A stretch of 64,000 bases of DNA, from contig OZ287758.1 in NCBI GenBank assembly GCA_965649765.1, positions 34,410,001-34,474,000 on the forward strand, given 5' to 3'. How positions within the stretch are numbered: the stretch's first letter is position 1; each line of letters starts with the position of its first letter. Below the pieces are notes generated by a model. The model was not told where the DNA came from, did not search any database, and was given only the letters and a program-made list of their open reading frames with translations. The stretch is from Bispira polyomma (taxonomy: Eukaryota). Shown here piece by piece: positions 9,076-64,000 of the stretch. A program made the translations under genes and the position numbers.

Positions 9076-11316
9076 CTACTCCCCAACCCAAAGACCCCAC
9101 GACTTTTCCTTGTTCAATTTAGCCCCAGACGCAAAACCATAAAGCTCACATATATTCAAAATTTTAACAACCGACAACAAATTCATAATTACAAAAGTAC
9201 AGTCATCCGCATATTGACTAATCCTGCACTCAACTTTACTCCCCAGAATCTTAAAACCTGTGATATGAGTATCCCCTCTAATGACATTTGCAAATGGTTC
9301 TATACATAATACATATAACAAAGGTGATAAACTGCAACCTTGCCTAACACTTCTAGTAACATCAAAAGCTTCTGTGAAAAACCCATTAACTAAAACTGTA
9401 CTTTTAATACCAAAATATAACAAATTTACCCACTTAATAATTTCCGGACCAAACCCAAATTTCTGTAAAACTTTAAACATAAAATTATGATCCACCCTGT
9501 CGAAAGCCTTTGATTGATCTAAAGATAACATTATACATTTAATATTCTTCTGCCCAGAGTAATTTAAAATATTTCTTAGTAAATGAACATTATCTTGAAC
9601 TGACCTCCCCACAACTGCTGATGTCTGATCAATATTAACAATACTCCCCATTACCCTTTTAAACCTATTTGTCAAACATTTACTAATTATTTTGTAGTCA
9701 CAGCATAATAATGAAATCGGTCTCCAATAACTTAATAAATCAGCCTTTTCAGAATTTTTACACACTAAAGTAATTATTCCCAATTTTTGAGTATCAGATA
9801 AAGTTCCCTCTTCATAACATGTATTGGCCATATTTACAAAATAATCCCCTAAAATATCCCAATTTACTTCATAAAACTCCTTTGGCAATCCATCAAACCC
9901 AGGTGACTTTCCATTTTTCATATATTTTAAAGCCTCATAACACTCAAATTTGGACAAACTACCTTCACATTTCACCCTATCGACATCAGTTAAACTTGGT
10001 AAATCTTTTAGGAAATAATCTATTAAATTTTGATCAATTTCTTCTTTTGTAAATAAATCTTTATAAAATTGTCTAACATGTTTTAAAATATCTTCCCTCT
10101 GAGTGACAAAATTACCATCCCCAACATCAAGTTTCTCTATAAGTTTCTTTTCAGCTCTTTTATTTTCCAAATGCAGAAAATACTTGGAGGGCTTTTCATC
10201 ATTTTCCAGACCTTTAACTTTTGACCTTACCTTTGACCCCTCCTGGTAAGAATTTAACAAATTATTAGTTTCAATTTCAACCCTTTTAACATCTTTATCA
10301 TACTTATTAGAATTCATTCTAGATAAATTTCGAAATTTAAAAAATTCTTTTTGCAAATCTTTATATTTGGATCTGAAAACCTGATTTAACCTCTTAGAAT
10401 GTGCCACAATTATTATTTTACATTTTACTTTAAAGCTATCCCACAATTCCGGCATAACTCTAACTACACCCTTAAATTCACTTTCACAAAGATCTTTTAA
10501 GTCCAATCTTAAATCAATATCATTTAAAATAGAAGTGTTACATTTCCAATACCCTGGCCCCAAAACTTCTGAAAACCCATTTAAATCAAAACACACCTTA
10601 ACAATACTGTGATCAGAAATACTAAAAGGAACAGAAATGTGTGAAGTTGAAACAACAGATTTTAACAGCTTTCTTGACACATAGACCCTATCCAACCTAC
10701 ATAACACCTTTCTCCCCCCACCATTCCCCTCCCAAGTAAATTCCCTTTGTCCTTTGTGTAAATGTCTAAAACAATCTGTCAAGCCAAATTCACGCCTCAA
10801 TTGTGAAAATTCCTCCTTACCAATATCCCCAACTTCCATATTACCTCCTTTCTTATCCAAAGAAATACTTTCCACAAAATTAAAGTCACCACCCAATATT
10901 ACAAACTTTTTAGTCACCAAAAACCCTGACAAATTAATAAAATCCCTTCTTTCTGACGCATTATTAGGCAAATAAACATTAATCAATCTGTACTCAATCC
11001 CATTTATTTCCACATCTAAAATGAAATACCTCCCCTGAAAATCAAAATCAAAATTTAAGATTTTATATTTAAGATTAGACCCTAACAAAATCCCTACACC
11101 ACTTGAATGTCTATCCCCAAAAGACCAGAAACCTTTACCCCTATAACAACAAGCCCAATTTCTACCCTCTGAAATATTGACACAATGGGTCTCTTGAACA
11201 AACACAATATCCAAATCTTCTAAATTTACAATATTGAACACATTAAACCGCTTATCAGAACTTCTAAACCCCCTTACATTTAAAGACCCTACCCTCAGAT
11301 TAGTATTAAAACCCAT
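9076..11316 (-). CDS. ORF2 family A: AP endonuclease plus reverse transcriptase (C-terminus missing)
   Basis: SLNVRG, QETH, GGDFN, RLDR, SDH (APE); KSPGFDGLP, WRPISLL, LDQSKAFD, RQGCSLSP, QYADD (RT). Confidence 0.93.
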   Translation of the reverse strand: MGFNTNLRVGSLNVRGFRSSDKRFNVFNIVNLEDLDIVFVQETHCVNISEGRNWACCYRGKGFWSFGDRHSSGVGILLGSNLKYKILNFDFDFQGRYFILDVEINGIEYRLINVYLPNNASERRDFINLSGFLVTKKFVILGGDFNFVESISLDKKGGNMEVGDIGKEEFSQLRREFGLTDCFRHLHKGQREFTWEGNGGGRKVLCRLDRVYVSRKLLKSVVSTSHISVPFSISDHSIVKVCFDLNGFSEVLGPGYWKCNTSILNDIDLRLDLKDLCESEFKGVVRVMPELWDSFKVKCKIIIVAHSKRLNQVFRSKYKDLQKEFFKFRNLSRMNSNKYDKDVKRVEIETNNLLNSYQEGSKVRSKVKGLENDEKPSKYFLHLENKRAEKKLIEKLDVGDGNFVTQREDILKHVRQFYKDLFTKEEIDQNLIDYFLKDLPSLTDVDRVKCEGSLSKFECYEALKYMKNGKSPGFDGLPKEFYEVNWDILGDYFVNMANTCYEEGTLSDTQKLGIITLVCKNSEKADLLSYWRPISLLCCDYKIISKCLTNRFKRVMGSIVNIDQTSAVVGRSVQDNVHLLRNILNYSGQKNIKCIMLSLDQSKAFDRVDHNFMFKVLQKFGFGPEIIKWVNLLYFGIKSTVLVNGFFTEAFDVTRSVRQGCSLSPLLYVLCIEPFANVIRGDTHITGFKILGSKVECRISQYADDCTFVIMNLLSVVKILNICELYGFASGAKLNKEKSWGLWVGE

Positions 11317-11634
11317 AATTACATATATAAAAGAACTTTACAATATTAACTAAAAATAGCGTAAAAAAGTCATACTTCTATATAAATCTAAATACAAATC
11401 CTAATACATGCATTTACTCCTATACATATACAAACATATATATATACAAATATATACATATTAAAAAAGAACTGATCTGATCACAAAATACAATATCCAT
11501 CACTGTAAAAAACCAAAACAACATGTCCAAAACACAAGTCCAAAAAATCATAATCCAACTCCGTAAGCCAGGTCACATCCATCTGTTCTGTCCATGCCGT
11601 ATCCAATCTGACCATCAAAACACCACATCAGTTC

Positions 11635-21362: not shown

Positions 21363-24300
21363 TTACAAACAAATATCCAGACTATTATCAACTGTAACAT
21401 GACATAAATAGTTATTACCCTCCCATAACTTCTTAAACTTTGATAAAGAAAGACGCTTGAAGTCAGCTAAGATTCGTAACCTAATATTAGTAATAAATGT
21501 AAACTTAATATAATTATAATCTACATTCTTTTCTTTAAATTTATGCTTATTTCTGGCTACCCAAATAGCCCATCTACCCTCAGCTAACAAAATGATGAAC
21601 AAAATATTAAACTTAGAAAATTTTGACTTCTGAAAGACATTAAAAACAATATTTTTAGCAGTAACCTTAACAGTCTGCCCGGACACTTTAGATAATATAC
21701 CTTCTATAAAATTCCATAAGGATATAACAATTGGACAATTAAAAAATAGATGATCAACAGTTTCTACATGAAAATTACACAATACACATTTAGGACTCTT
21801 GACAATTTTATTGAGATGATATAAATAGGCATTAACCGGAACAATATGGTAAGTCGATAAGTGATGTTTTGACCTTCAGACAATAACAAAGAAATGGAAT
21901 TATTAGCAAAAGCTTCATCAAAATTAATATTAGGATATACCCCCCAGATACGAGGTAAAACATAATTCTTTTCCATCAAAATATCATAAACCTTCTTAAC
22001 AGTGAGCTGACTAAAATCAATATTGGGTTGTAACAGCACAAAATCCTTAAAATTGTCTAAAGCTTGTTGATAAAAATATGGCTTTTCAAAACTGCAAGGT
22101 AAAGTATTATCATAAACACAATCAAAAAGATATTTTCTCAAATCCATCCGAAGCCAAAACATAGCAAAATCTTTCCATTTCCTATAAAGACCATACAATA
22201 AACTACTAATATGAATGATAGAAAAAGCTTTAAGCTTGGTTTCAATATGAGATAAATCCAGACCACCCTTTAAAACAGTATTATATAATACTTCCCTCTT
22301 TAAAGCTTCAATCCTATCTGACCATACAAAATTAAACATTTTTGATTTAAACTTTCTTAGATAACATTCTGGCAAAGGAAAAACTACCCCAGTATACCAC
22401 AACTTACTCAGACCCAAACACTTTAATAATACAGACTTGCCATTCAAAGTTAGATTCCTTAACTTATTCAAATTAATAACTTTCTCAAATTGTGACCAAA
22501 CTGTACCCCACGTTTCTAACATACAATCACCATTACCCAACTGAACTCCACAAACTTTTAAAGAACTATACGACCACTGTAACCCCAAAAGATTCCTATT
22601 TGGATCACCCTAATTACCTATCCATAACCCCCAAGACTTTTCTTTATTCAACTTAGCTCCTGATACAAACCCATGCTATTCACAAATATTTAAAATCTTA
22701 GAAATTGACAATGTATTCATAACAACAAAAGTGCAGTCATCTGCATATTGCGATATCCGACAATCCACACCAGAACCAGGGATCCGAAATCCCTGGATAT
22801 GAGCATTAGCCCTAATAACATTACCAAAAGGTTCTATACACAAGACATACAATAATGGTGACAAACTACATCCCTGTCTGACACTACGCTTCACCGGAAA
22901 CAGATCTGTAAAAAAAACCATTAACTAATACGGTACTCTTAATGTCAAAATATAAAAGACGAACCCAATTAACAAAATCCGGTTCAAAACCAAATTTAGA
23001 CAAAACTTTAAACATATAATCATGATCAACACGATCAAAGGCTTTTGATTGATCTAAGGACAACAAAATACACTTCACTTCTTTCTGATGAGAATAATCT
23101 ATAATATTGCGCATTAAATGTATATTATCTTGTATTGATCTTCCAGGTACTGCTGCTGTTTGGTCCAAACTGATTAAATTACCCATAACTTTCTTTAAAC
23201 GATTAGTCAAAACCTTACTAATTACTTTGTAATCAACACACAAAAGTGAAATAGGCCTCCAATAATTAAGAAGATCAGATTTTTCAGAATTCTTACATAT
23301 CAATGTGACAACCCCTAACTTTCGAGTTTCAGACAAAGATTGATTTTTAAAACAAGAATTTGCAATATTAATAAAAGTATCCCCCAAGAAATCCCAAAAA
23401 GTACAATAAAATTCTTTAGGCAGCCCATCTATGCCAGGTGACTTATTATTTTTCATATCAAACAAAGCTTTATGACACTCCTGCTTAGTTAATAAACCCT
23501 CACACAAAATATTTTGTTCTTGATTTAAACACTTTAAGTCTTTTAAAAAATAATCGACAAGACTGATCAATTTCCTCTTTTTCAAATAATTCAATATAAA
23601 ATTGTCTAACATGCTTTAAAATATCATTCTTATCAGTAACACAAAATCCCTCCCCAATATTTAACCTATCAATAACTTTCCGTTCAGCCCTCTTTTTCTC
23701 CTTATTCAAGAAATACCGTGATGGTTTCTCAACAAAACTTAAACTATTAATTTTGGACCTAACCTTACAACCCTGGGAAAAACTATCTAAAACTTTATTT
23801 ATTTCAGTTTCTATTTCTTGAAGCTTACTTTTATAAAGGCCAAGAGTATTTTTATTTAAAGTCTGAAATTTCAAAAAATCACGCCGAAGTTCTTTATATT
23901 TAAACCTATGTGCACTATTAATTCTTTTAGAGTGAAGCTGAATGACATGCTTGCAATCAAATTTAAATTTGTCCCAAATAGCTGATGTAATTTCATCCAC
24001 CCCCTGTAAAATCTATCCCACAAAGCTTTAATATCACCTTGCAAATACGGGTCTTGAAGCACTGAAGTATTACATTTTCAAAATTCCGGCCCCATGCCAC
24101 CAGAAAGTTTGTTTAAATTCAATTTTAAGGAAACACAAGCATGGTCAGAAATACTGTTTATAATTGGCAAATGATCAAGAACTACAAAAGACCGCTTAAT
24201 AGATGTAGAAGTATAAAACCTGTCCAACCTACACAATACCCTACCCCGAGAACTTGTCCCCTCCCAAGTAAAAAGCCTCTTTGTTTTATATAACTCCCTA

Positions 24301-24929
24301 AATGGATCACATCAAGAAAAATCACTAACTAAACACTTCATTTCCCTACTACCAATATCCCCAGCTAAAACATCCCCACCTTTCTTGTCCAAGGCTAAGT
24401 CATCTACAAAATTAAAATCCCCACCTAAAAGTAATTTTCTTTTTGTAACCAAATATTTTGATAAATTTGAAATAAAGAGTTTTCTATCAACATTATTATT
24501 CGGAACATAAACATTAATCAAACGAAATTCCACATTATCAATATTTAAATCCAAAATTAAAAGCCTACCTTCAAAATCAAAATCATAAACATTAATCAAA
24601 CGAAATTCCACATTATCAATATTTAAATCCAAAATTAAAAGCCTACCTTCAAAATCAAAATCAAAACTGACTACATCATAACCTAAGGCTGAACTTAACA
24701 AGATTCCTACACCGCATGAATGTTTTTGTACAACAGACCAGAAAACTTTCCCCTCAAAAGTATTGTCCCAGTATTTAGCCTCCTTAATATTTGTACAATG
24801 CGTCTCTTGAATGAATAAAATGTCCCACCCTTCTAAAGAAAACATATTAAACAAATTCTGCCTCTTACCAATATCCCTAAACCCCCTTACATTTAAACTT
24901 GCTATATTTAACCCCCTATGACTTGACAT
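21363..24929 (-). pseudogene. ORF2 family C (APE, RT, zinc finger), multiple frameshifts
   Basis: Collinear ORF pieces with SLNVRG, GGDFN, KSPGIDGLP, QYADD, ETVDHLFFNC; in-frame 78-bp tandem duplication in the APE. Confidence 0.88.
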
Positions 24930-25279
24930 ATTTTCATAATAAAAATGTGTATATATACATATATATATATAAAAACAGACCTGCTAACAGTATACAATAT
25001 TCCAAAAATATAAAACCAAGTATAATGTCCAAAACCAAGTCCAAAATCATGTCCAAAATCCATCATCCAAGTCCAATCCATCAGTTCTGCCAAGGCCATA
25101 TCCACAAATCAAATCCGAAAGAAAAAACAAAGTCCGACAATCCAAAGAAAAACACAGACCGATAAACAAAGTCCAAGTCCGAAAATCATAGTCCATAAGC
25201 CGTATCCAAGGTCATAATTCAAAAATCAGAGTCCTGACCATAATCCAAAAAAACACAATCCTCAAACAGCTCCAGGTCG

Positions 25280-26413
25280 TCACTTAATAGTCTTTGAAGA
25301 TAGCTTGTCCTTCCGCCTCTTCTTCTTTGCCCTCTGGTCTTTAACCGTGTCATCCGTAGCCGTGCTGTCCTCGTCAATTACCAGATGCGAATCACTATCT
25401 GTCCCACCATCCGACACATCACCCTCATAATCATCTCTGCCTGGATGGGAATCATACAAGTCACTGGCCACGGTGCCGTCTTCAGCCGTATCCCCCTTAA
25501 CTTCCGCTGAAAAATCAGGACTGTTACCCATCTGACTGGCCCCATTGCCTTCTTTCTCAGCCATATTTGTCTGCCTTAAAATACTTTCATCACCTTGGTA
25601 ATTAACATCATCCCCCGGAAAATCACAACTCATAGCTGCCTCAGTCACTACCTTCCTGTTAGGGTCTGTCCTGGATGCAAAGGTATCCTCTTGACTCGGA
25701 CAATCTTTTTTAATGTGGCCAATGCCCTTACAGGCAAAACACACCGGCCCTCTCCCAGGAACCGTAACCAAGACTGAATACGAAGTCCCGCCGTACCAAA
25801 TACTGTCTAGACTAGGTAATATAACACCCTCTTCAGGCTCTAAAATAACACTTCTTACACTTGTCTTGACATGGTGACAACCATCAATGTTAGAGTAATC
25901 CCAGAAAAAACTCTTGACTAATCCAAACATAGAAAAATATGCAATCACATGCGCCCATGGCACAAACGCAGGCAACCAATGCAACTGCACCTTCACCAAT
26001 TCCTTGGATAAAGATATCAGTCTCGCCTTGTGATCCCTAATGATCAAATTGGCACTCAAAAGTGAAGCAGCCGAATCCTCAGACGTGAAAGATGCCAACC
26101 AAACATGATTTGAGTTCACCGGCCCAAAAGCCTCCAAAGTATCCATGTCTACATGTCGCCTCAAGGAATCCAACACATGATTTCTCAAATAGGGGTTTCC
26201 CTCCTTCGGCAATATTATCTTCACTGTGTAATCCCTTGAAGGCGGGTGGCTGTCCATACACACCAACAAATTCCTCAAAGACTGACTTTCCAAAGCCAAT
26301 TTTGCTGTCGCCAAAGTTTTCTCGAAAGAGTCCATATCATATCTGGAATACCTAATTTTGTAATCCACAAAAGAATCATTCATTGCTCTTGTAATAAAAT
26401 CATCATCTGCCAT
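25280..26413 (-). CDS. ORF1 family C: single zinc-knuckle protein
   Basis: LHWLP, PGRGPVCFACKGIGHIKKDC, basic C-terminus; lacks the second knuckle of A and B. Confidence 0.85.
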   Translation of the reverse strand: MADDDFITRAMNDSFVDYKIRYSRYDMDSFEKTLATAKLALESQSLRNLLVCMDSHPPSRDYTVKIILPKEGNPYLRNHVLDSLRRHVDMDTLEAFGPVNSNHVWLASFTSEDSAASLLSANLIIRDHKARLISLSKELVKVQLHWLPAFVPWAHVIAYFSMFGLVKSFFWDYSNIDGCHHVKTSVRSVILEPEEGVILPSLDSIWYGGTSYSVLVTVPGRGPVCFACKGIGHIKKDCPSQEDTFASRTDPNRKVVTEAAMSCDFPGDDVNYQGDESILRQTNMAEKEGNGASQMGNSPDFSAEVKGDTAEDGTVASDLYDSHPGRDDYEGDVSDGGTDSDSHLVIDEDSTATDDTVKDQRAKKKRRKDKLSSKTIK

Positions 26414-26510
26414 TTTGCAACAAAAAGAAAACCTCAACTCGAAAAACAACGAAAGATTCCTTAACTTAGAAATCGCAAATAAACCAGGCCAAGAGACTAC
26501 TTTGTAATCG

Positions 26511-26533
26511 TAGCCAAAAGGCCGAGAAGCGAC
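26511..26533 (-). ncRNA. RNU2: U2 snRNA 5' fragment (nt 1-23)
   Basis: GTCGCTTCTCGGCCTTTTGGCTA downstream of the PSE-like element. Confidence 0.9.
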
Positions 26534-27651
26534 GCCCTCAATTCAGTTCCAAGGACTTTTAGAGTCCAAGTGAACTGCTCAACTATGGTTGGTACTGTCT
26601 GAATAAAACTGTGAAACTGTCGTGGCGTGTCGCGCGGTTTGGGCCTTTCTCATGTGTGTCAGTGGCTGGTGGTCTGTGGCCAAGCTTTAGTGGCACTTTT
26701 AGTGCCACACTAGAAATGCCAGATTATGCCCCACACCAACACTGTGGCAGACTGCAGCACACTGGGCTGGCAGTCATGTGGAGTGTTGTCTGTCCTGCAT
26801 GGACGTTTTTAGGATAAAAATGCACTAAAAACAGTGGGAGAGATCACAGAGGACAAAAATACATTAAAAAACCCATGGTTCATCACTCAACTGACTGTTG
26901 GGGGGCAGAGTTAATTACAGGCGTGGGTGTGAGGCCAGACTGCCCGACATTCGGGTATGTTGAGGCCATGAGGCAGGCAGTCGGGCAGCAAGTATTCAGA
27001 AGCCATTAACCGTACGTGGGGCCAACTGTCAGGCTTTAAAAGGAGGCCCGGCTACTCGGTTGGGTTAGGGCTGTGGATCTCTCAGGATCTCTGAGGATCT
27101 GTGGGATCTGTCTTGAGTGGCTACTGTGCTCACAGGATGGATGTAGTGAGTGACTCAGTCAATGAATTAGTCAATCAATCAATCAAACAATTAACAACAC
27201 TCACTCGTCCCAATTGTGTAGTACACACACTTGTATGCACTGAGAAGTATTCTCCCCCTTTTCTGCTGCTGCTGCCATTCACAATATACATCTTCACACA
27301 GTCAGTAAGTTTTGATTCTATTTTCTAATAATCTATCAAGCAGTCGGTCAACCCAAATAAGAAAATAAATTGCCAATCAGTAACTGAGTACAAAAACCGA
27401 CATTGCCCACCAACAGTGAAATGAAATCAAAACACAGCACACATTTCAAACAAGTTTCTTTTATTTTCCTTTCTAGACATGCAGCCAGTCAGTCACCCAA
27501 TCACCCATGAAATGAAAACACCCAATTATTATTTTTTTTTTTTTTTTGCACTACTAGTTCTTTAAGCCTAATACACGACTAGATGGTCGCACACAGCAGC
27601 GCAAACTGAGTTGTGTTGGTTGTTCATTACTTTTTAAATCCCCAAGCTTGG

Positions 27652-27752
27652 GGGTGGGCCATTCCTGGAGGTACTGCAATACCAGGCCAACCCGTGGAGG
27701 GGTCGGAGCAAGCTCCTGCATCCCCTTCTAGTTCTAAAAATCAGTTTAATAT
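27652..27752 (-). pseudogene. RNU2: U2 snRNA 3' fragment (about nt 90-190)
   Basis: Sm site and stem-loops III/IV present; 5' half replaced by unrelated A-rich sequence. Confidence 0.92.
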
Positions 27753-28929
27753 TGATTAATATTTTTTTTACCTAATAATTGTACACTCCAACTTTTGAGG
27801 CACACTATTTTATCACCAGAGGGCTCAATGTGGGTCTAAAGGTTAAGCAAAGAACACTAAAAAGAGAATGAACAAACCAAAAGAACAGGCTTTTTAATAT
27901 GGTTTTACATAAACAAGGTACTATAAAGATGGTTTTTATTGATATATGATGCTAGATTTTGTTTCTTGTTTGTATTCTTCTTCTGTTGAGCTGATTCTAT
28001 TTTCTATTCTCCATTTCCTATTTTTCTTCTCCTTGTGTACTGTAGGTTTGGGATAGGCTTGCATATGTCGATTGATGTTTGGGCTGCCAGTCGATCCATG
28101 GTTAGGATTGATTGAGAGATTCCCTGCCACTGTGGTCTTGCTATGCTGAGAGAGCTAGAGGCCCTTAAAAGGCTTAGACATTTTCTTAATAAAAGAAAAA
28201 ACACTAGTTTGTTTGTTTGTTTTGTTTTATAGTCAAGACTTGTTTTGATTTCTATTTATCTATTATTGTTGTTTAAAATAAAGTAAATTGGCTAGTAGAA
28301 TTTTTTATTTTTAAAATAATTTAAGGTGATTTCTGTTTGGGACTGGCTTTTGCCATGTTATAGACGCATGGTGTCAAAGCCTGTCCAACCTTGAGAGGAA
28401 AATAATTTTTTTAGAAGATCTTAGCTATTTATAAACAATATATCACATATATTTGATATGTTTGTTCACTCACTAAACGTTTTACTTAAATCTTAAACAA
28501 GCTTGGTTATATAGTATTTGGTATTACATCAGTAGCTCAGCAAAAAGGTAGATTCAACGTCTCTTAAACCTTATAGTACTTGACCTTACATCCGTAACCC
28601 AGCAAGATGTAAGACCAAAATCTGTTAGGCCTGATGGGTGTAGAAATTAGCTTGCTTGTGTGGTACCTGGCCTTACATCAGTAACCTAGCATGAAGTTAA
28701 AGAGAGAGATATTTCTATGGGAAAGGGGGTGGTTTACTCGTTGCGTTACTTTTAGATTTCTTTACTTTATACTCAGTCTGTTAGGCTATTGCCGCAGAGT
28801 AGAGTATTTTACTTAATTGCTGTTACTGGGTTGTGCATTTTAATAGAGGTTTCATGATTGAACCAGTTGGTATTTTTTCTTTTTTTTAAATTCTATATTA
28901 AGGATAACACATTTTTAGCTGTTGTTCTA

Positions 28930-29957: not shown

Positions 29958-30452
29958 AGCCACCCCGGGGCTAGTAAGGTCAGTGCTGTACCTTAAAAAC
30001 AATACTTACCTTAGTCAGATCACAGTGACCCCTCCTCTGATTGGCTGGCAGCTGGCCCACATATTAATTATTTCCCGTTAAAAGCATATAACCACCATTA
30101 AAATTTAAGAAACTGAAAGGGCAACACGCCATTTTAACTTATAAAATTTTTTGAATTTGTTATTGGATATTTTATACTTTACATCTTATTTACAAGTTTT
30201 AATTATTATTGTTGTGTGTGTGTACTGCCGAGAGGAGTCTCCGTCATACTGTGAAGGGAAAAGCTGGATTTCACTTCCATTATAGTCAATATTGGGCTTT
30301 GACATATGCGAATGCCGCTTCACTTTTGGAGCTACGGTTAAAGGGCTGTTCTCACTTCTATTCTGGTGTTAATTACATAAATTTACTAGTCAAATTCAAC
30401 AGCTCGGGATACGCATATATCAAAGCACAATTCTCCTTGTATATGATTTCAG

Positions 30453-31485
30453 ATGGCTCCGAGAAAAAAACTATTTATGTAACTCTTGCAATACCAAACA
30501 TGTAAAACCTATCAATGAAAATTGTCCCTATATTGAGGACGAGGAGACAGTTAGTGACAATGCTAGTGAAAGTAGTGACATTTCGGCAAAGGAAATAAAT
30601 TTACGGATTTTACAAGAACTTCAGCCATTGAATGGCCGTATGACGGCAGTGGAGAGTAAAGTGAACATTTCTGATCAATCTGCCTCGTTGGCAGCGTCTA
30701 GTGCTAACGTTAGCCTGTCTGGGGCGACTGCAAGACTATCAACTACCTCAGCGACAAGTCCTGGGCTACAGCAGCTGCCCAGTGGGATGGAAGATCTGTT
30801 GGTGCCATCCCTGACTACATTGAAGACGTCTGAGCATCTCCAAAGAGCTGTAGACTGCAGGTTGAAAGAACTGGCTCATTTAAACGACGCAGGTAACCAA
30901 AAGTCTCAGAGGGGTGGGTCAGAAACTGTTTGGGTAAAGAAAAATGTGCCCTGGCCACAAAACCACATTCTGGGGGGTCAAAATAAAAGCCGCTCATCGT
31001 ACGATAGTTTATCTATGGCCCAATGGGTCTCAGGGTTCTGTGCGATTATTAGGGATGAAAAAGATAATAATACCAAAGATTCAATGTTAGAATATGTGTA
31101 AGACCTCATGGAGGACGCGCACGATTTCTCCTGGAGTGCTGCAAAAGGCAGTCATGCAGTTCTGCTGTGCAGAATGGAGGAAGGGAAGGTAACTTGGCAG
31201 GACACTGCTAAAATTGATCGAATAAGAAGAGCTTATGCTCAGAAAATAGTTAGCAATGGCCACTCGGGTGCTTCCTCCACAAGATTTTCCACTAGCAAAT
31301 CTAGCGAAAAAGGGCTGCCTTGCAGATATTTCCAAAGGGGTGCTTGTACTAACAAAACAGATCATGAGACTAAAGGTCAATTGTACTTACATATATGCTC
31401 AGTTTGTCATACCAGTGGGAAATCATACCCCCACAGTGCTAGAGACTGTCACAAAAACAAGGCTAGTAATGCAAAAAATGAATGA
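30453..31485 (+). pseudogene. gag-like ORF of the YR retrotransposon
   Basis: N-terminal CNSCNTKHVKP...C motif, WPQ...YDSLSMAQWVSGF, C-terminal CRYFQRGAC...HICSVC...H...C. Confidence 0.7.
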
Positions 31486-32269
31486 GGCACTGCAAACAAG
31501 CAGTGCCTGAACCCCATGTTGATCAAGATTCTCGGGTTAAAGTAAACAAACCAAAATGTAAAAAGTTAACAAGAGAAAGGTGGTTTACAGAAAGAATTGT
31601 ATATAATTCCAAATGTGTGTCTAACTATATGTCTGGACAAGGGGGCTACCATAACTGGAGAGCAGATTTGGCAAAATATCAAAATAAAACTTATGCAGAA
31701 GTAGTACAAAAAAATCAAAATGTGGACATTGAAAACAAAAAAGTAAATAGGCTTGTTGCAAGTGTCAAAAGCACAGGCTCAGCTTATAGCCCCCTCGTCC
31801 AAAAAGAAATACTTTGTACAAATGTATATCATAACAATGACTCTGAAAGAAACGTGTAAAACCCAGAACAAACCAATTAGGCTTGTTCGACAAGGTGACA
31901 CCAAACTCGAGAGAACAAAGGCAAACTGCCACCTCCTGGGTAACAATAGGGTTACACAAAAGCGAAAGGGAACAATACCAGTGGTTGTGCGTGGTCAAGA
32001 AAGGGACATTCAATGTAACAATAGGTTTAACCCCCTTTTGGCCCTTACCGAAGTCGATCAAGTAGAACGACTAACTGACAACAGTGTTAATGACACTAGT
32101 AAAGCCCAAAAGTGTGTCAACAATACACGTGAGTTAAACTCAAATGTCAACGTGCCGGTGGAGGACAAATACCAATTAGAACTCCAAGTTAAAAAGAGGC
32201 ATAGGCAAACAGTTGAGTTAGCTAAAGACAACAAAACATTCCAAGCATGGAATGACCAGAATAAGGAAA

Positions 32270-33967
32270 AGTTTGGTTTTATACCTCTAGGAGATTTGTG
32301 TATACCTAGTACCATAAGCCATAACGTACCCATTGAGGCTCCACTGGCATTATATGAAAAAGTAAAAAGTCACAAAGTTCCAAATTATTTGGGTGCACAA
32401 ATTCCCGTACAATCTGAATTGAATGTAGCGAACTGGGAAAAGCTATTGCGAGACTACTGGGACAAACTTTGGTTTTCCATTAAATTTCGACAGAAAGAAT
32501 AACTTGCACCATACCGGGGATAACCATACATCGGCCACTCAATACGAGAGTGACGTAAAGGCATACTTAAAAGAGCAAAAAGACTTTGGTGCCATTATAG
32601 GCCCCTTTAAAAAACCTCCCATTGAAAAATTACATATATCACCCTTCATGACTAGGCCAAAGCCAGATGGGGATCTTAGAAGGGTAATTATCGACTTAAG
32701 TTTCCCTCACGGCCTAGCAGTGAACTCTTGCAATTGCAAGCAGTGAACACTTGCAATTGCAAGAGACACCTATTTGGGAACTCCCTTTCTGTTAACATTG
32801 CCAACTATTGATGATATTACCAAAAACATTGTTAAATTAGGAAAAGGAGCCTTATTATATAAGCTAGACATAAGTCGGGCATTCCGTCATGTGAAAATAG
32901 ACCCGGCAGACTATGAGCTATTAGGTTTAAAATTGGATGATATATATATCGATACATGCTTACCATTCGGCTATCGTCATGGAAGCGCGATTTTTCAGCG
33001 CCTAAGTGACGCCATACGCCATGACGTCACGTGGTTATGACGTCATCAACTATATTGATGACGTCATAGGTTTTGGCCAACAAGAAATAATACAAGAAGC
33101 CTTTAATACGTTAAAAACTTTATTTCAAGAGTTAGGTTTCACATTAAGCAAAAAGAAAATTGTAGACCCAAATACTAAGGTCATTTGCCTAGGTGTCCTT
33201 ATTGACACAGACACATTCACGGTCTCCATACCCGATGCAAAATTAAAATACAGGATATATGTAGTGCATGGAATAGAAACAAAACGTGTACAAAACGACA
33301 ATTGCAATCTTTGTTAGGCTCGTTACTATACATTTCCAAATGTGTAAAATCCTCTAGGGCATTTCTCAACAGAGTGTTAGACACATTGCGTTCAGCCGAC
33401 AATACAGCATGTATCAAATTGAATACTGTATTTTTTCAAGACCTAAATTGGTTTCAAAAGTTCTTACCTACGTTTAATGGAGTAGCTTTCTTTAACCATG
33501 CACCAATCACAGAGCAGGTCGAATTAGATGCATGTTTACAAGGGTTAGGCGCTAGATATGGGAACCAAGTATACACAAAACAAATTCCATTAGGATTTAG
33601 GGATTATACAATTGTACATTTAGAAATGATCAATATCTTAGTAGTCATACGAGTATGGAAACACCAATGGACGGGAAAAAAGTTGCTAGTCCATTGTGAC
33701 AATCAAGCGGTAGTGCATGTTTTGAATTCAGGCAAAACATATGATCTCACACTAGCAGCAATGGCAAGGAACATATTTATGGAAACAGCGCAATCAGACA
33801 TCGAGTTACGAACTGTCCATATATTAGAGAAAAATAGCTGTACAGCTGATTTGCTGTCCAGATGGCATTTGACAACCGATAATGTAGAAAAACTAAACAC
33901 ACTAATACCACGTCCAGAATGGCTATTAGTAAAAGATGATACTTTAGAATTGGACTGGTCAATATAA
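32270..33967 (+). pseudogene. RT and RNase H of the YR retrotransposon (frameshifted)
   Basis: RRVIIDLSFP, KLDISRAFRH, LPFG, NYIDD, LDACLQGLG, HLEM, HCDNQA, ADLLSR. Confidence 0.88.
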
Positions 33968-33980
33968 AATGTAATTTCAG

Positions 33981-34950
33981 GTCTGGATGGGTGGGTTGCA
34001 AAGGTAGCAGCCCAGGCAGCTCTTAGAACACAGCAAGCGTTTCGGCCTTCAACCAAAAAGTCCTACACAGTAATGTTTAGGGTCTTTCTTGCTTTTTGTT
34101 GCTTTGCAAATTTGGCTATGACGGCCATAACCACCCCGATACTCTTAGCCTTTTTGGAATGTTTAGTAGCAAACAACACAACCCACACTTCCATAGCAAA
34201 TTACCTTTCAGCAATAAAAGCAAATATGTCATTATATGGACTAGATATCTCAGCATTCAATGATCAGAGAGTCAAATACTTTCAAAAAGCTCTAGTGCTG
34301 CAAAAACCCTTCAGGGCTAAGATAAATGCAATAATTGACATTGATTTACTTGCGAAAATTAGCTTAGTCTGTGACTCCATGTATATGGGCCAAGTTTACA
34401 AGGCAGCATATCTGCTGGCCTTCTTATTTTTATATCAAACTTAGTTCCCCGTTCAGCTTCAGCATTTTCACCACTGCATCAGTTAGCCAGGGCTGACATA
34501 TTATTCGCCCCTCCTGGTGCTCATATCATAATTAAATGGACGAAAACACTACAGACAAGGGACAATGTAAAAGTTATTAAGATTCCAGTCCTCTCAAATT
34601 CACAGGTCTGCCCGGTGCAGGCCCTCCAAGTGCTTTTAGCAATCACACCTGGTTCCAAAAATAAACCTCTCTTTCAAATAAAGATAAATTCCAACTGGTG
34701 TCCGTTAACAGACACTAGAATTCGTAGAAATCTCAAAGCAATATTAGGTAGACTAGGATTGGAAGGTTCAAGTATCACATTCCATTCATTTAGACGATCC
34801 GGGGCCACCTTGGCCTTTAATTCACATGTGCCCATACAAGCAATCCAGAGCCAAGGCATCTGGTCATCAGACTGCATATGGCGATATATAACGCAAAATC
34901 ACGAAGCCTCGGACCAGGTTGCTCTTGCTTTCCAAGCACGTTTCTCTCCT
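33981..34950 (+). pseudogene. Tyrosine recombinase of the YR retrotransposon
   Basis: AFRPST...Y, SIANYLSAIK, KWTKT, CPV, HSFRRSGAT, IQSQGIWSSDCIWRY. Confidence 0.88.
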
Positions 34951-35437
34951 TCTACTACCCCCTATTTGGGCCTTGGTGCTCTTTCACTAGAATATATTTA
35001 CAGCATATTTTATACATCTATTCAAATTCTAAGGCCACCTTAAAATCAAATAACTTAATTTATGGTAACCTTAACTTCTGGTAAACTTAAATCAACTGAA
35101 TCTCAAAATCTAAGGTTACCTTATCTTCACTTTACTAAAAAACTGTTTTGTTTAAGGTTAACTTAATGTCAGTTTTCGTAAACTTAACTTAATTTATGGT
35201 AAACTTAAACTCTAAAGGTGGCCTTAAATTTTTAAAATTTTACAATCATTAATGTTTTATACAATCTGTACATAGCTTAGATTAGAAATTAAAATTCATA
35301 TCCCAACTGCTGGCTTTTCATTGCATAAAATCTTAGTAAACCTAATGTAAACCTAATACATAAATATCTTAAATCAACAATCAATTGGGTACGAGGCACT
35401 GAGTGAATTGTCACATATTTTTGTGTTCGTACAGCCA

Positions 35438-59525: not shown

Positions 59526-62500
59526 TCAGTTTGTTAGACCATAAAACTGATTGGCATTCTGCAAGTCAACTGTCACAACCTCTTCCACTGCCAACCCCTT
59601 TAGATCCGCGATCCTTTGGGCTATGCTCAGAATGCCATAAGGGGAATTGTAGTTACACCCCTGATGTTCATGAACCTTCAGGTGGGGAGAGTCAGTTTCC
59701 AACAAGATCTTCTCCAAAGGCAGTCCCTTTATTACTTCCTCTATCTCGGGATGACGTTCTGTTCTCATTATCAACCCGGTAAAGCCAAATTTAACATTCG
59801 GGAAAGTATCCTGCTATTTTTCTGTCTCTCTGACTCCCCCGTTGTAGCAATGCCTGTGTATCTTGTACCTTTCCTTTTCACAGGCAGGCAACTCGCTACG
59901 CATAACCTTCAAACACAGTTCAGTCGCATATGTGTCCTGGTTATAATCCCGGCAATGTATGACCAGGACTTTGGAGAAAAGTTGCTTTTTTACATAAAAT
60001 CCTAAAAGATCTTTGAGGACTGCCACTTGATGTTGCATCAGTGCTGAGTGACCTGAGGTGCGCTCAATCCCCATCTCTCCAATAGCAACGCATCGGGGTT
60101 GACTTTCCACCAAAAACTTCAATTCGTCTAGATGAACTTTGGTGGCTTTATGGGCTTCCTTTGGATGAACCCCGAATGCAAACCAAAGACGGCTGTTCGT
60201 CTTGGCCTCACGCAACTCCCTGTAGCTTGGCATGTCATCGCAAAAGTTTGCGACTGCAGCCTCTAGATGGGCACATAGATGAGGCTGAGGACCATTTCCA
60301 AGTATAGAATCCAGATGAAATTTCTTGCTTACCCTCCTGGTTCTATCTAAATGAAAATGGGAATCCGTGAAGGTCAGTTTTTGGTGCATTTTAAAATAAT
60401 TCTGCCTCCCTCTCCTGAATTCCCACTCTCTTTCCCCATATGGCGTGCCAACCTCCTCAAGCCCTTTTTGCCTCGTTGCTCTCGCGCTGATTGCCTTGGC
60501 CCGTACCAGCGCCTCTCTATAGGTTTTCTCCTCCTCTTTTTTCCTTTCTTGCTCAAATTCTGGCCCAATAGACAGATTTTGAATTACAGCTGAGGTTGAT
60601 GGTTTTCCCAGAGCCGCATCCATGTCGGCAATCAACTCACTTGTCGGCTCTGGTGATTTCATTTCAACATCTTAACTCTGTTCTGCCTCTGGGCTTAACT
60701 CCCCTTCTTCAATTTATTCCAATAATGGTCCAGACTCCCCTGCCTCAGTTTGAGCCGCTAATGGGCTTGTTGATACTTCCTCAGGGAGCGCATCATTTTG
60801 GGAGGTCTCAGCGCCTGGTTCCACTTTGGAAACTCTTCTCCTGGAGGGGGTATCAAATGATTCCTCCTCAACGTCCACCTGTAATGGAGGAAATTCTTCA
60901 TTAAATGCCGCCGTTCCAGCTTCTGGTATTACTGTGGAACCCTCAACATCTATTTTGAGAATAGGCATAGCTCTCTGAAAATGTTCCTCACCTACAATGT
61001 TTATCAGACAAGCCGCTACTCTCCAATGAATCAGGGATTCTACAACATTTGGTGGGTCAATGCTCAGGGTTCTGCAAAGGGATTGTCCCGTCCTCCAGAC
61101 GTGGAACTCATTCATCAATTCAAAATTCTCCTCACAGTTTTCGATAGTCATACCCCTGGTGTTCGGGTAGATATGATCCCTGATAACCCGCTGTAGAAGT
61201 TCTTCAGGGCTACTGACTCCTAATTCATGTGCAGCGCTCAACAAAAATTCCTCAGTAAAGATTATCCTGGTTTCCAGGTTTTCGTTCCAGAATCCAGTTG
61301 GCAGATGACTCGCTATAACGTGGCGCCTCATATAGCTTTGCGGGAGCCCACAGGTTTTGATTGGGCAAGCCGGTCGTTGTTTAGCTTTCTTTTTTGGCCT
61401 GACAATATTCTGCGACCTCTGACTTGGATACACAGGTGCGGCAGATCTACGGGCTTCAGCTTGAACTGCATCTCTTTGAGATTTTGACCCGTTACCTTGA
61501 GAGGACTTTTCTAATTTCTTACTGGCTTCAGGTTTATCTGAATCCTCATGCTTCTCTTGACGATCCTCTTTTTTGTTGGCTTTTTTAGATCCTTTTTGGT
61601 CAGCTTTTTTAGGTCCTTTTTTATGGGCGTCAGATTGATCTGACTCCCCTGAATAATGCCTTTTTTTTGCTACTCTTTTTGGCATCCTTCCTAGACCGTT
61701 TGACATAGGTCTCGGAGTCATCTGAATATCCGTGATGCTTTTTCTTTTTCGACCTCACCTCTCGCCACTCATATTCTCCAACGGTTTTACGCTGCTTTAT
61801 AGGCTTCGGACTAGTTTGCCTGGCAGCTCATTCTAGCCTGCTGCTCTTAATGGCTGCCCTCATCTCAGCCTCTTCCTCATTCACGCCATACACCCTTTTA
61901 GGTTTAACTGAGTGAGCTACAGATGTTTCCGGTGTAGTGCTACTTGTTTGAGCTGGTCCCGAAGTAGCAACTGACGCCTGTGCTGAACTGGCAACTGCAG
62001 GGGTAACACTTGAGGCTTGGCCACTCATCAGTAACCGGATGTCCCTCAGACATCATTCTAACAACAGAGCTTGGTCAAATGGCTCGCGTCAGTTACTGGG
62101 ATGAAAAACTCTTCCCCTTGCTATTTCAGGCCTCAAAATTTGAAATATGCCTATTAGTCCCCTGGACCCACCAGACTGGGAATCTGAGATATCGCATTGA
62201 GATTGCAACACTTCAGATTCCCGTCCGCTTTCCTTTGACCTACCAGCCTGAGAATCTGAGACATTGTCTTGCCCCTGCAACCTCTCAGATTCTCGTCCAC
62301 TTACACTGGGTCTACTTACCCGGGAATCTGGAGCATTGCCTGTACCATGCAACCCTCCAGAATTCCGTCTGTTACCTCCATGACCAGATCTCATATGTGG
62401 TGGTTGATAGTGGTTCCCACCACGGGGATGCCATCTTCCACCAATTGGTCTTGGCCAGGGTTGATCCTCAGCAGCCTGAGTCCCTCCCCGCCTTTTACCA

Positions 62501-62685
62501 TCATCGTCAACGCGACTCTGGGGTGGTACGAGATTTGGTCTCTCGGGTCCCTCATCACCATAGCGACGTGGACCCCGGAAAGACTGAGGTCCTCGATAGG
62601 GGCGACCGCCATGAAAACGACGCTGTCCCCCTCCTCTCCAGCCTCTCCGTCTACCCCTCTCATAGGGGTTACTACCATACGGCAT
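59526..62685 (-). pseudogene. Extra ORF in the env position: RG-rich N-terminus, C2H2-like finger, TatD DNase domain
   Basis: 61721-59526 is one frame broken by three stops; DSHFH, GVHP, GEMG, IHCR, RHCY, ETDSP TatD motifs; CPIKTC...HVIASH finger. Confidence 0.82.
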
Positions 62686-62801
62686 CTGAAAAACCACAAC
62701 ACAAAACATTTAACACCTCGTAAGAAAGTCAATATTATCTCATCATTACCACCACCTTAACAAAACCATGCAACCTAAAATTACTTAAGTAGAGTAATCA
62801 T

Positions 62802-64000
62802 TTAAATGCTTTGGTCTTCTCCTTTCACGCCCCGACCTCGTGGTTGGCATGACATCATCGGGTGAAGGGGTGTCTCTCTGAAAACATCATGCTGGGTAAC
62901 AAGATTTGGAACTAAAGGAACAACATTTTGACTTTCTAGATTGTTATCTTGATTAAAAGGAATAATATCTTGACTCTCTAAATTATCATTATCTTGACTA
63001 AAAGGAATAACATTTTGACTAAAAGGGGAAATATCTAAGTTAGTATCAGATTGACTAAATAACTTATCTAAGTCAAGGGAATCCATGTCAGTCAACCTCT
63101 CTTCAGTCAGGGTAGCGTCTTGATCTTCCGTTTGACTCAACAGTAGGTTCCTTTTCCGCCTCAGCCACAGAGGTACCTCCCTGTCCACACACAACTTCAA
63201 TCTGTCATGACGCACAACAGAACTTTTTTTCCTGTCACATATTCTAAGTAAGATAGGAGAAATTACTTGAGTTACTAAGAACGGACCCTTCCATACTTGT
63301 TGTAATTTAGGACTTTGACCTACTTTCTTTGCCGAATCCAACCTGTAGACTAAATCCCTGACTTTTGTAACATTGAACTTTTCGCCTCATATCATAATCA
63401 TTCTTCTGGCATATTTGAAAAGATAACAGATTCTCCCGAGCGATTTGATGGACTTGTCTGAGGATATTCTTCATCCTGATTACATACTCTGATGAAGTGA
63501 GACTAGATTCTTCTATACCTCCCATCATTACATCTAGTGGTAGAATAACTTCTCTCCCCAACATCATTAGATTTGGTGTGAAACCGGTGTTTCTGTTCAT
63601 TGTAGAACGGATAGCTCCAGCTAACTGTTGCAGATGTTCGTCCCAATGCTGTTGGTTACCCTTGAGGAAACATCTGGTTAGTTGAAGTAATGTTCGATTG
63701 TACCGCTCCACCTGCCCGTTGGAACATGGCCGATATGGTGTCGTTCTTGTTTTGGCTATTTGTAGCAACTCGCAGACAGAAGCAAATAGTCGACCATCAA
63801 AGTTTTTACCTTGGTTTGTATGTATTTCAACAGGGCATCCAAAACGGAAAATGAAACCATCCACGAGACATCTGGCCACTTGCTTTGCATTTTGAAGTGG
63901 TAGTGGAAAACACTCCAGCCATTTAGTGAACTGGTCCACAATCATAAGCACATATTGGTTCCCTTTGGCACTCGGTGTGAATGGCCTTAATATATCTACA
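62802..64000 (-). mobile_element. Ty3/Gypsy pol integrase and C-terminal domain (frameshifted, continues beyond the window)
   Basis: DILGP, VDQFTKW, HTNQGKNF, PCSNGQVER, TGFTP, WKGPF (GPY/F) motifs. Confidence 0.93.

Follow-up and report, generated by a model that had tools for sequence, protein, structure and literature searches.

Keno-type retrotransposons at a U2 locus

The window, a 64,000-nt stretch of the Bispira polyomma genome (C11:34410001-34474000 of 1.04 Gb), contains three non-LTR retrotransposons (A, B and C), all on the minus strand and each preceded by a promoter unit of U2 snRNA. Rfam placed U2 pieces at 13097-13204, 14220-14408, 20711-20893 and 27649-27779. The window elements encode a CCHC knuckle in ORF1, and an APE endonuclease and reverse transcriptase (RT) in ORF2 (Pfam Exo_endo_phos, RVT_1 and zf-RVT). 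In window coordinates, the elements are arranged as follows.

13158..13204, minus: 5' segment of U2 snRNA (its nt 1-47), immediately preceding A; a PSE-like word lies upstream of it
11635..13107, minus: ORF1 of A, with CCHC knuckle, lysine-rich end and TAG stop
11317..11634, minus: ORF1-ORF2 spacer of A, 318 nt
9076..11316, minus: ORF2 of A (APE endonuclease and RT), 3'-truncated in the window copy
18257..19513, minus: ORF1 of B
17967..18256, minus: ORF1-ORF2 spacer of B, 290 nt
14550..17966, minus: ORF2 of B (APE, RT and zf-RVT), broken by frameshifts
14220..14376, minus: U2 snRNA 3' segment, target flank of B
25280..26413, minus: ORF1 of C (Pfam zf-CCHC)
20870..24929, minus: ORF2 of C (broken), 3' UTR, AATAAA, A tail and end at the U2 target

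Element A is 3'-truncated yet U2-headed, B adjoins U2 at the Keno target near 14376, and C ends in AATAAA and an A tail followed by the U2 target. The same fixed U2 site was found at the 3' end of B, C and 8 of 14 full-length loci; among the full-length loci examined, no U2 junction was seen at those of families c4, c5 and c7. Keno elements are Tx1-clade APE non-LTR elements that insert specifically into genes for U2 snRNA (Kojima and Fujiwara 2004, via PMC4494074 and PMC4640811). By domains and target site, the elements described here fit this U2-specific Tx1 lineage; the RT tree covers the families of this one genome. They share with Keno the APE-plus-RT ORF2, a gag-like CCHC ORF1, the AATAAA and A tail, and a 3' end that in the window adjoins U2 at the common Keno/Utopia site, and are new members of this known kind. 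They differ in that at least 12 spacer families coexist in one genome, with ORF1/ORF2 swaps, and in carrying a spacer motif, of which the accessible text of PMC4494074 and PMC4640811 gives no description.

Genome-wide, we distinguished 12 Keno-type spacer families (A, B, C, c3-c9, L091 and L095) and two subfamilies. Among 20 upstream clusters, c10 and c11 were taken as subfamilies of c8 and B, respectively, and c12-c19 as other LINE families; degenerate loci with no recognisable spacer (L096, L097 and L110-L115) were left uncounted. Many Keno-type families, several of them ORF-intact (c3, c6 and c8), sit in a second, large U2 array at C11:29.49-29.84 Mb. The ORF1 tree conflicts with that of ORF2: A and c3 are 93% identical in ORF2 and 61% in ORF1, and c4/c6 and B/c7 are sisters by ORF2 only (loci L118, L120, L122 and L127, and the window). 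B and C are distant in both ORFs despite a common variant U2-like head (19640-19691 and 26480-26532, minus), in which U2 nt 1-24 is followed by a shared altered sequence replacing the region that pairs with the branch point. Other families bear U2-like heads of their own (loci L123, L120, L118, L121 and L131), and L120 combines a full U2 5' segment with a second U2-like head. The window also holds a tandem duplication of about 78 nt in ORF2 of C (24506-24666), a DIRS-like element with matches to RNase H and tyrosine recombinase (30373-35043, plus), and LTR-retrotransposon-like integrase fragments followed by an ORF with a TatD DNase domain (59814-63999, minus).

A conserved block in the ORF1-ORF2 spacers

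A preliminary description of the window had singled out a gap-free 39-nt block in the three spacers, read as a hidden coding segment.

11568..11606, minus: conserved block of A, three DRACH words (A at 11591, 11586 and 11573) with the tandem core GGACA-GAACA
18154..18192, minus: conserved block of B, DRACH A at 18177, 18172 and 18160
18197-18199, minus: codon of B, GGA in the window copy and TGA in sister copies
25067..25105, minus: conserved block of C, DRACH A at 25085 and 25072

The block lies where described, matches at 30/39 (A/B), 30/39 (A/C) and 29/39 (B/C) positions, and has the three translations first given for it. The best gap-free 39-mers between spacers reach 30, 31 and 29 matches, compared with a mean of about 25 in shuffled spacers and maxima of 27-29 (mononucleotide) or 29-30 (6-nt block; 100 shuffles each), so that the block exceeds chance by a modest margin. 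Its surroundings, thought to be barely alignable, align at 71% over 175 nt (A-C) and 78% over 95 nt (B-C).

Three observations bear on the reading frame. In C, as originally noted, the block is in another frame than ORF1, within a 49-codon ATG ORF. The claim that the block frame is open from the ORF1 stop stands for the A and B window copies, and for B it stands for that copy only: the sister copies L002 and L003, the B-like L083 and sequencing runs X1-X3 carry TGA at codon 20, ahead of the block. The in-frame TGA is thus present in two of three genomic B copies and in all three runs, which agree on the same two base differences from the window copy (the runs represent two samples of one study and may include the source of the assembly). 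The supposed excess of synonymous change is weak: of the codon changes in the three block pairs, 8 are synonymous and 11 non-synonymous, and differences are distributed 6/8/12 by codon position.

The spacers are not constrained as coding sequence

A core word of the block, G(A/G)(C/T)AGAAC, occurs at nine places in 7 of 12 spacers examined, and in this larger family set its frame relative to ORF1 varies (frames 0/1/2 at 5/2/2 places). The ORF1 stop is followed by an open frame as far as the core word at two of the nine places, A and the window copy of B; an in-frame AUG upstream is lacking in two cases and otherwise lies 1-35 codons away. Indels ignore the frame, with lengths divisible by three in 3 of 31 cases (17 aligned pairs), and so does the spacing of neighbouring GGAC words (6/11/9 modulo 3, p=0.48). 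The peptide word of the block was found in none of 152 ORF1 homologues, whose ends are mostly K/R-rich; these came from protein searches and carry no DNA context.

Two results lean towards coding. Codon positions 1, 2 and 3 of the nine aligned words are conserved at 0.97/0.87/0.70, a result that is partly circular in that the anchor let positions 2 and 3 vary, and the ORF1 frame stays open for longer than expected, with a mean first stop at codon 18.5 compared with 12.9 in shuffled sequence (p=0.087; 10 families, using the open B copy). The second of these would suit stop-codon readthrough that gives ORF1p a Gly/aromatic tail, as would the 28 open codons in both A copies (the two genome copies on which A spacer variation is based) and the UGA-C stop context of C and c8, a context known to be leaky. 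No open, conserved frame past the stop extends across relatives, however: B normally has TGA before the block, 5 of 10 families meet their next stop after 1-6 codons, and C, c5 and the first c8 copy carry the word out of frame with ORF1. Together with its absence from the ORF1 homologues, this makes readthrough extremely improbable.

Translation of a third micro-ORF, starting at an AUG and encoding a (G/D)YG.DRT peptide, would account for the positional conservation and for synonymous GAC/GAT, AGA/AGG and TAC/TAT changes, and an in-frame AUG does lie 7-35 codons upstream in A, C and the second c8/c10 word. Such an AUG is missing for c5 and the first c8 word, c9 has TAA within the word, five of the 10 main families have no word at all, and flanks and ORF lengths are unrelated between families. 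Shared start and stop codons, frame-keeping indels and a synonymous excess were all lacking, and we regard the micro-ORF as very improbable. The apparent synonymy is in part explained by the motif itself: when the core is read as GAC-AGR-ACW, third codon positions are where DRACH leaves R and H free, which accounts for two wobble positions. Tandem DRACH words can therefore mimic synonymous codon change, a caution for similar analyses. The coding reading of the block fails.

DRACH words cluster behind the ORF1 stop

Conserved in the spacers is a nucleotide word, DRACH (the consensus for m6A methylation of RNA), at high density, beginning within 90 nt of the ORF1 stop and spread over 100-250 nt.

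11524..11634, minus: DRACH cluster of A, six sites (A at 11632, 11591, 11586, 11573, 11539 and 11526), up to 110 nt from the ORF1 stop
18113..18256, minus: DRACH cluster of B, seven sites, up to 145 nt from the ORF1 stop
25026..25279, minus: DRACH cluster of C, eleven sites, up to 255 nt from the ORF1 stop

Over the first 200 nt beyond ORF1 in each of the 12 families (2400 nt in total), 69 DRACH words were observed where 13.65 were expected, and 42 GGACH words where 1.66 were expected. The excess matches the consensus at its D, R, A and H positions, since single-position changes abolish it (observed/expected ratios of 0.4-1.5: DRCCH 8/5.4, DRGCH 18/15.0, DRTCH 12/28.1, DYACH 18/15.8, CRACH 1/1.3 and DRACG 2/4.3), and G follows RAC in 2/72 cases as against 21/127 for other C residues (p=0.0025). 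A DRACH count on the reverse complement (59) cannot serve as a control, given the A/C-rich composition of that strand.

C is scarce in the U/G-rich spacer strand, and many of its C residues share one context. In the first 200 nt of 10 families, the commonest AC-centred words were GGACU (19), GGACA (12) and GAACU (8); as a set, picked after inspection of the data, they occur 39 times, compared with 2.2 expected under mononucleotide and 10.2 under dinucleotide shuffling (maximum 20 in 1000 shuffles). DRACH as a whole also exceeds dinucleotide shuffles in these families (52 versus 36.5, maximum 50). Families found after the motif was chosen repeat the pattern (L091, 9 versus 0.37; L095, 3 versus 0.15). 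The enrichment is statistically strong within this genome, with p-values that overstate independence because the 12 families share ancestry and one genome.

Position is as distinctive as composition. Words of the three-word set (strong words) number 33 over the 1600 nt that follow the ORF1 stop, where 1.7 are expected (20.6 per kb). The distal spacer (478 nt) has 0, ORF2 has 1.9 per kb, and the 1200 nt that follow the ORF2 stop have 1 (0.8 per kb). Four other LINE families, drawn from six full-length loci, have 2 in 800 nt after ORF1 (2.5 per kb), and the U-rich 3' UTRs of the elements show no excess (2 versus 1.7). ORF1 itself is mildly enriched (52 versus 35 under synonymous shuffles).

Seen against this pattern, the 39-nt block is the best-conserved part of a non-coding DRACH cluster, whose words are mostly UGGACU, UGGACA and GAACU. 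Its core consists of two adjoining DRACH words, GGACA-GAACW, which are GGACA-GGACU in L091 and three in a row in c5. The third DRACH site of B is displaced by one base relative to A and C, so that the codon frame is lost and the motif intact.

The words are confined to the sense strand, with 33 TGGAC and 0 GTCCA (0.44 expected). This bears on the idea that they are transcription-factor sites in DNA which, with TA runs, make up an internal promoter from which an RNA of ORF2 alone is transcribed. TA dinucleotide runs do occur 8-140 nt ahead of the ORF2 AUG in all 10 spacers checked (for example, in the distal spacers at 11317-11460 and 24930-24975), and TGGACTTTG, which we take to resemble a nuclear-receptor (HNF4) site, appears four times as compared with 0.01 expected. 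Beyond the one-sided strand distribution, the TTTG tail is missing at most sites and the resemblance to the host U2 PSE is limited to a shared core; we consider an internal promoter quite improbable.

Constraint and turnover of the cluster

The AC of DRACH changed at 4/74 positions, against 39/233 for other A or C residues (p=0.012, Fisher test on six diverged pairs: the five most diverged of the 17 aligned, plus L088/L095). Swaps between GAAC and GGAC, which retain the motif, separate the A copies and also L088 from L095. There are 5-11 defined DRACH adenosines per family. Family c9 has one strong site, and c3, which is young and has intact ORFs and at least five near-identical copies, has a single DRACH site, so that the cluster is not needed in every lineage. 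The distal A spacer, U/A-rich with TA runs, resembles that of c3. As A and c3 share the distal spacer and not the proximal cluster, modules seem to have been exchanged inside the spacer.

A neutral origin, in which a short unit spread by slippage or duplication in an ancestral spacer and was then inherited, would be in keeping with the low complexity of the spacers, an internal duplication in c8/c10, the survival of c3 without a cluster and the relatedness of all 12 families. Against it, the words persist across families whose ORF2s are 48-62% identical while flanks and spacing turn over (neighbour spacings of 6-61 nt), AC cores change at a third of the rate of other A/C, and the U-rich 3' UTRs lack an excess. 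We therefore judge neutral inheritance improbable.

Folding, pairing and processing signals

The last option raised in the preliminary description, an RNA signal, is the one favoured by the data, although as neither a 39-nt element nor a fold; ORF2 reinitiation is a putative role of this signal. No stable, conserved fold of the kind expected for a structured IRES emerged from the first 160 nt of the 12 spacers (minimum free energy z of -0.9 to +2.9; 40 shuffles each). UGGGA, counted in the spacer 3' of the stop, is not enriched (3 versus 2.97), which speaks against TURBS-type or stop-start coupling.

Canonical poly(A) signals in the spacers are at expectation (2 versus 2.05), and no copy with an A tail inside a known spacer was seen among 54 loci (L064-L117, 17 of them without a match to the family queries). 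Two further candidates were rejected: antisense pairing with the U2 leader (mean duplex z of +0.47 over 12 families; the A spacer has a 9-nt antisense word with p=0.035 taken alone) and PSE-like repeats, which in all 10 spacers were no better than word-preserving shuffles.

The spacers of 227-350 nt are AUG-rich (4-15 each), and the last strong site lies 78-258 nt from the ORF2 AUG.

A proposed m6A platform and its rival, a protein-binding array

We propose that the DRACH cluster is, on balance, probably a platform behind the ORF1 stop that carries m6A and binds reader proteins; its most likely use would be in translating ORF2 or in stabilising the RNA. Among m6A contexts GGACU is the commonest, and IGF2BPs prefer UGGAC (both PMC11508745). 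The host METTL3/14 would methylate the DRACH sites on the intronless element RNA. As m6A is excluded close to exon junctions, thus favouring long exons (PMC13629450), an intronless LINE RNA should be accessible. Readers such as eIF3, IGF2BP-type or YTH proteins would then bind the methylated sites, and ribosomes would most likely be kept or recruited for ORF2. In the host genome, two loci match MT-A70 and three match YTH. The MT-A70 loci are presumably METTL14-like (L141) and METTL3-like (L144); the METTL3 catalytic DPPW motif is not in the MT-A70 exons retrieved.

Given methylation and reader binding, we rank ORF2 translation first, with RNA stability or escape from decay after an early stop nearly as probable and other roles a small remainder; the position of the cluster behind the first stop, rather than the second, points to the ORF1-to-ORF2 step. 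Human L1 offers precedents for both outcomes, in a 5' UTR m6A cluster that docks eIF3 (PMC7873242) and in the lower RNA stability and mobility that follow RRACH loss (PMC8324889). In addition, eIF3 has been implicated in retaining post-termination 40S subunits for reinitiation (PMC5972666), and use of the ATF4 start is tuned by m6A (PMC10275272). In its most specific form, the proposal would have a methylated GGACU cluster dock eIF3 and pass ribosomes to ORF2 over a long, unstructured, AUG-rich spacer; we judge this version rather unlikely. The number of spacer AUGs and the distance from site to AUG are awkward for simple scanning.

The main rival needs no methylation. Repeated UGGAY/UAUGG could be sites for an RNA-binding protein, either an IGF2BP/ZBP1-type KH protein or the zinc knuckle of ORF1p, that would load onto the RNA as soon as ORF1 translation terminates. 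UGGAC ranks first among 5-mers (28 versus 5.1). The spacers are unstructured, ORF1p has a CCHC knuckle, and such knuckles bind GG-rich single strands. GGAU is frequent too (35 versus 11.0 under mononucleotide and 24.7 under dinucleotide expectation; 10 families) and as conserved as the DRACH cores (3/38 changed), and TAYGG (28 versus 7.0) and RACTTTG (9 versus 0.34) are enriched, none of the three being an m6A context. These words, together with the single site of c3, the spacer AUGs and an oyster m6A motif reported as AGUGA*C rather than GGACU (PMC10787124), are what makes a methylation-independent protein the principal competitor. A protein that binds GGAY could fit equally. However, C is preferred over U after GGA far beyond composition (GGAC 32 versus 1.9, compared with the GGAU figures above), GAACU is enriched (8 versus 2.6), and RAC is seldom followed by G, in line with the methyltransferase consensus. 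We regard binding independent of methylation as unlikely, though a serious candidate.

Relatives in other organisms

Scans of other organisms returned three metagenomic loci, no viral locus and one weak prokaryotic match (L149). One metagenomic locus, L138, is a decayed tandem fragment. The other two, on contigs from another organism, are U2-headed and encode an ORF1 homologue of 31% identity (L139, 1-1767; L140, 1450-3215). L139 has AATAAA and an A tail 150 nt past the ORF1 stop and on that account resembles a non-autonomous Keno with ORF1 alone. A comparable tail is seen in L140, whose contig ends first, 117 nt after the ORF1 stop. No ORF2 was seen in either. Each keeps two GGACU words behind ORF1, a weak signal (strong words 2 versus 0.3, p about 0.03; DRACH not significant) that lends some added weight to RNA stability as the function of an m6A platform.

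Comparison with known systems and implications

The closest parallels are the m6A cluster of the human L1 5' UTR (A332/A495/A600, with eIF3 docking; PMC7873242) and the RRACH-rich young L1s (PMC8324889). Clustered DRACH, the hallmark of such 5' UTR elements, is present here, and in both systems the clusters lie outside the coding sequence of a bicistronic LINE RNA and are apparently selected. The spacer cluster differs in lying between ORF1 and ORF2, in consisting of predicted methylation sites, and in its density (20.6 strong words per kb, where ORF2 has 1.9) on a strand rich in U and G and poor in C; the term 'inter-ORF' does not occur in the main texts of the two L1 papers. It would be a new variant on the m6A clusters known from L1.

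Termination-reinitiation systems, namely the TURBS of calicivirus and influenza B, the UAAUG coupling of SART1 and the 63-nt spacer of human L1 (PMC5972666 and PMC10275272), share the problem of making a second protein such as ORF2p from a bicistronic RNA, and eIF3 is implicated there. Here, in contrast, stop and start do not overlap, the spacers are hundreds of nucleotides long, the signal is 3' of the stop, UGGGA is unenriched and a stable fold is lacking. The long intergenic regions of fish, frog and lizard L1s, for which an IRES has been proposed (PMC5381506 and PMC3894237), are similarly long and low in GC, with T-rich short repeats and no shared fold; the accessible portions of these papers name no DRACH motif, and the IRES there is an in-silico prediction. 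In the openly accessible literature we found no description of a DRACH cluster, readthrough or a micro-ORF in Tx1/Keno spacers.

How ORF2 is translated over spacers of hundreds of bases is treated as an open question in reviews (PMC3894237 and PMC5381506). The Bispira spacers offer a sharp and cheap test, with 5-11 defined adenosines per family and a natural near-null family in c3, whose ORF2 is 93% identical to that of A. If the sites are methylated, a retrotransposon would be using host m6A at a new position and outside mammals. If an m6A-driven translation signal is borne out, it would answer how ORF2 is produced in LINEs with long inter-ORF regions and would constitute a new way of controlling translation of a second gene.
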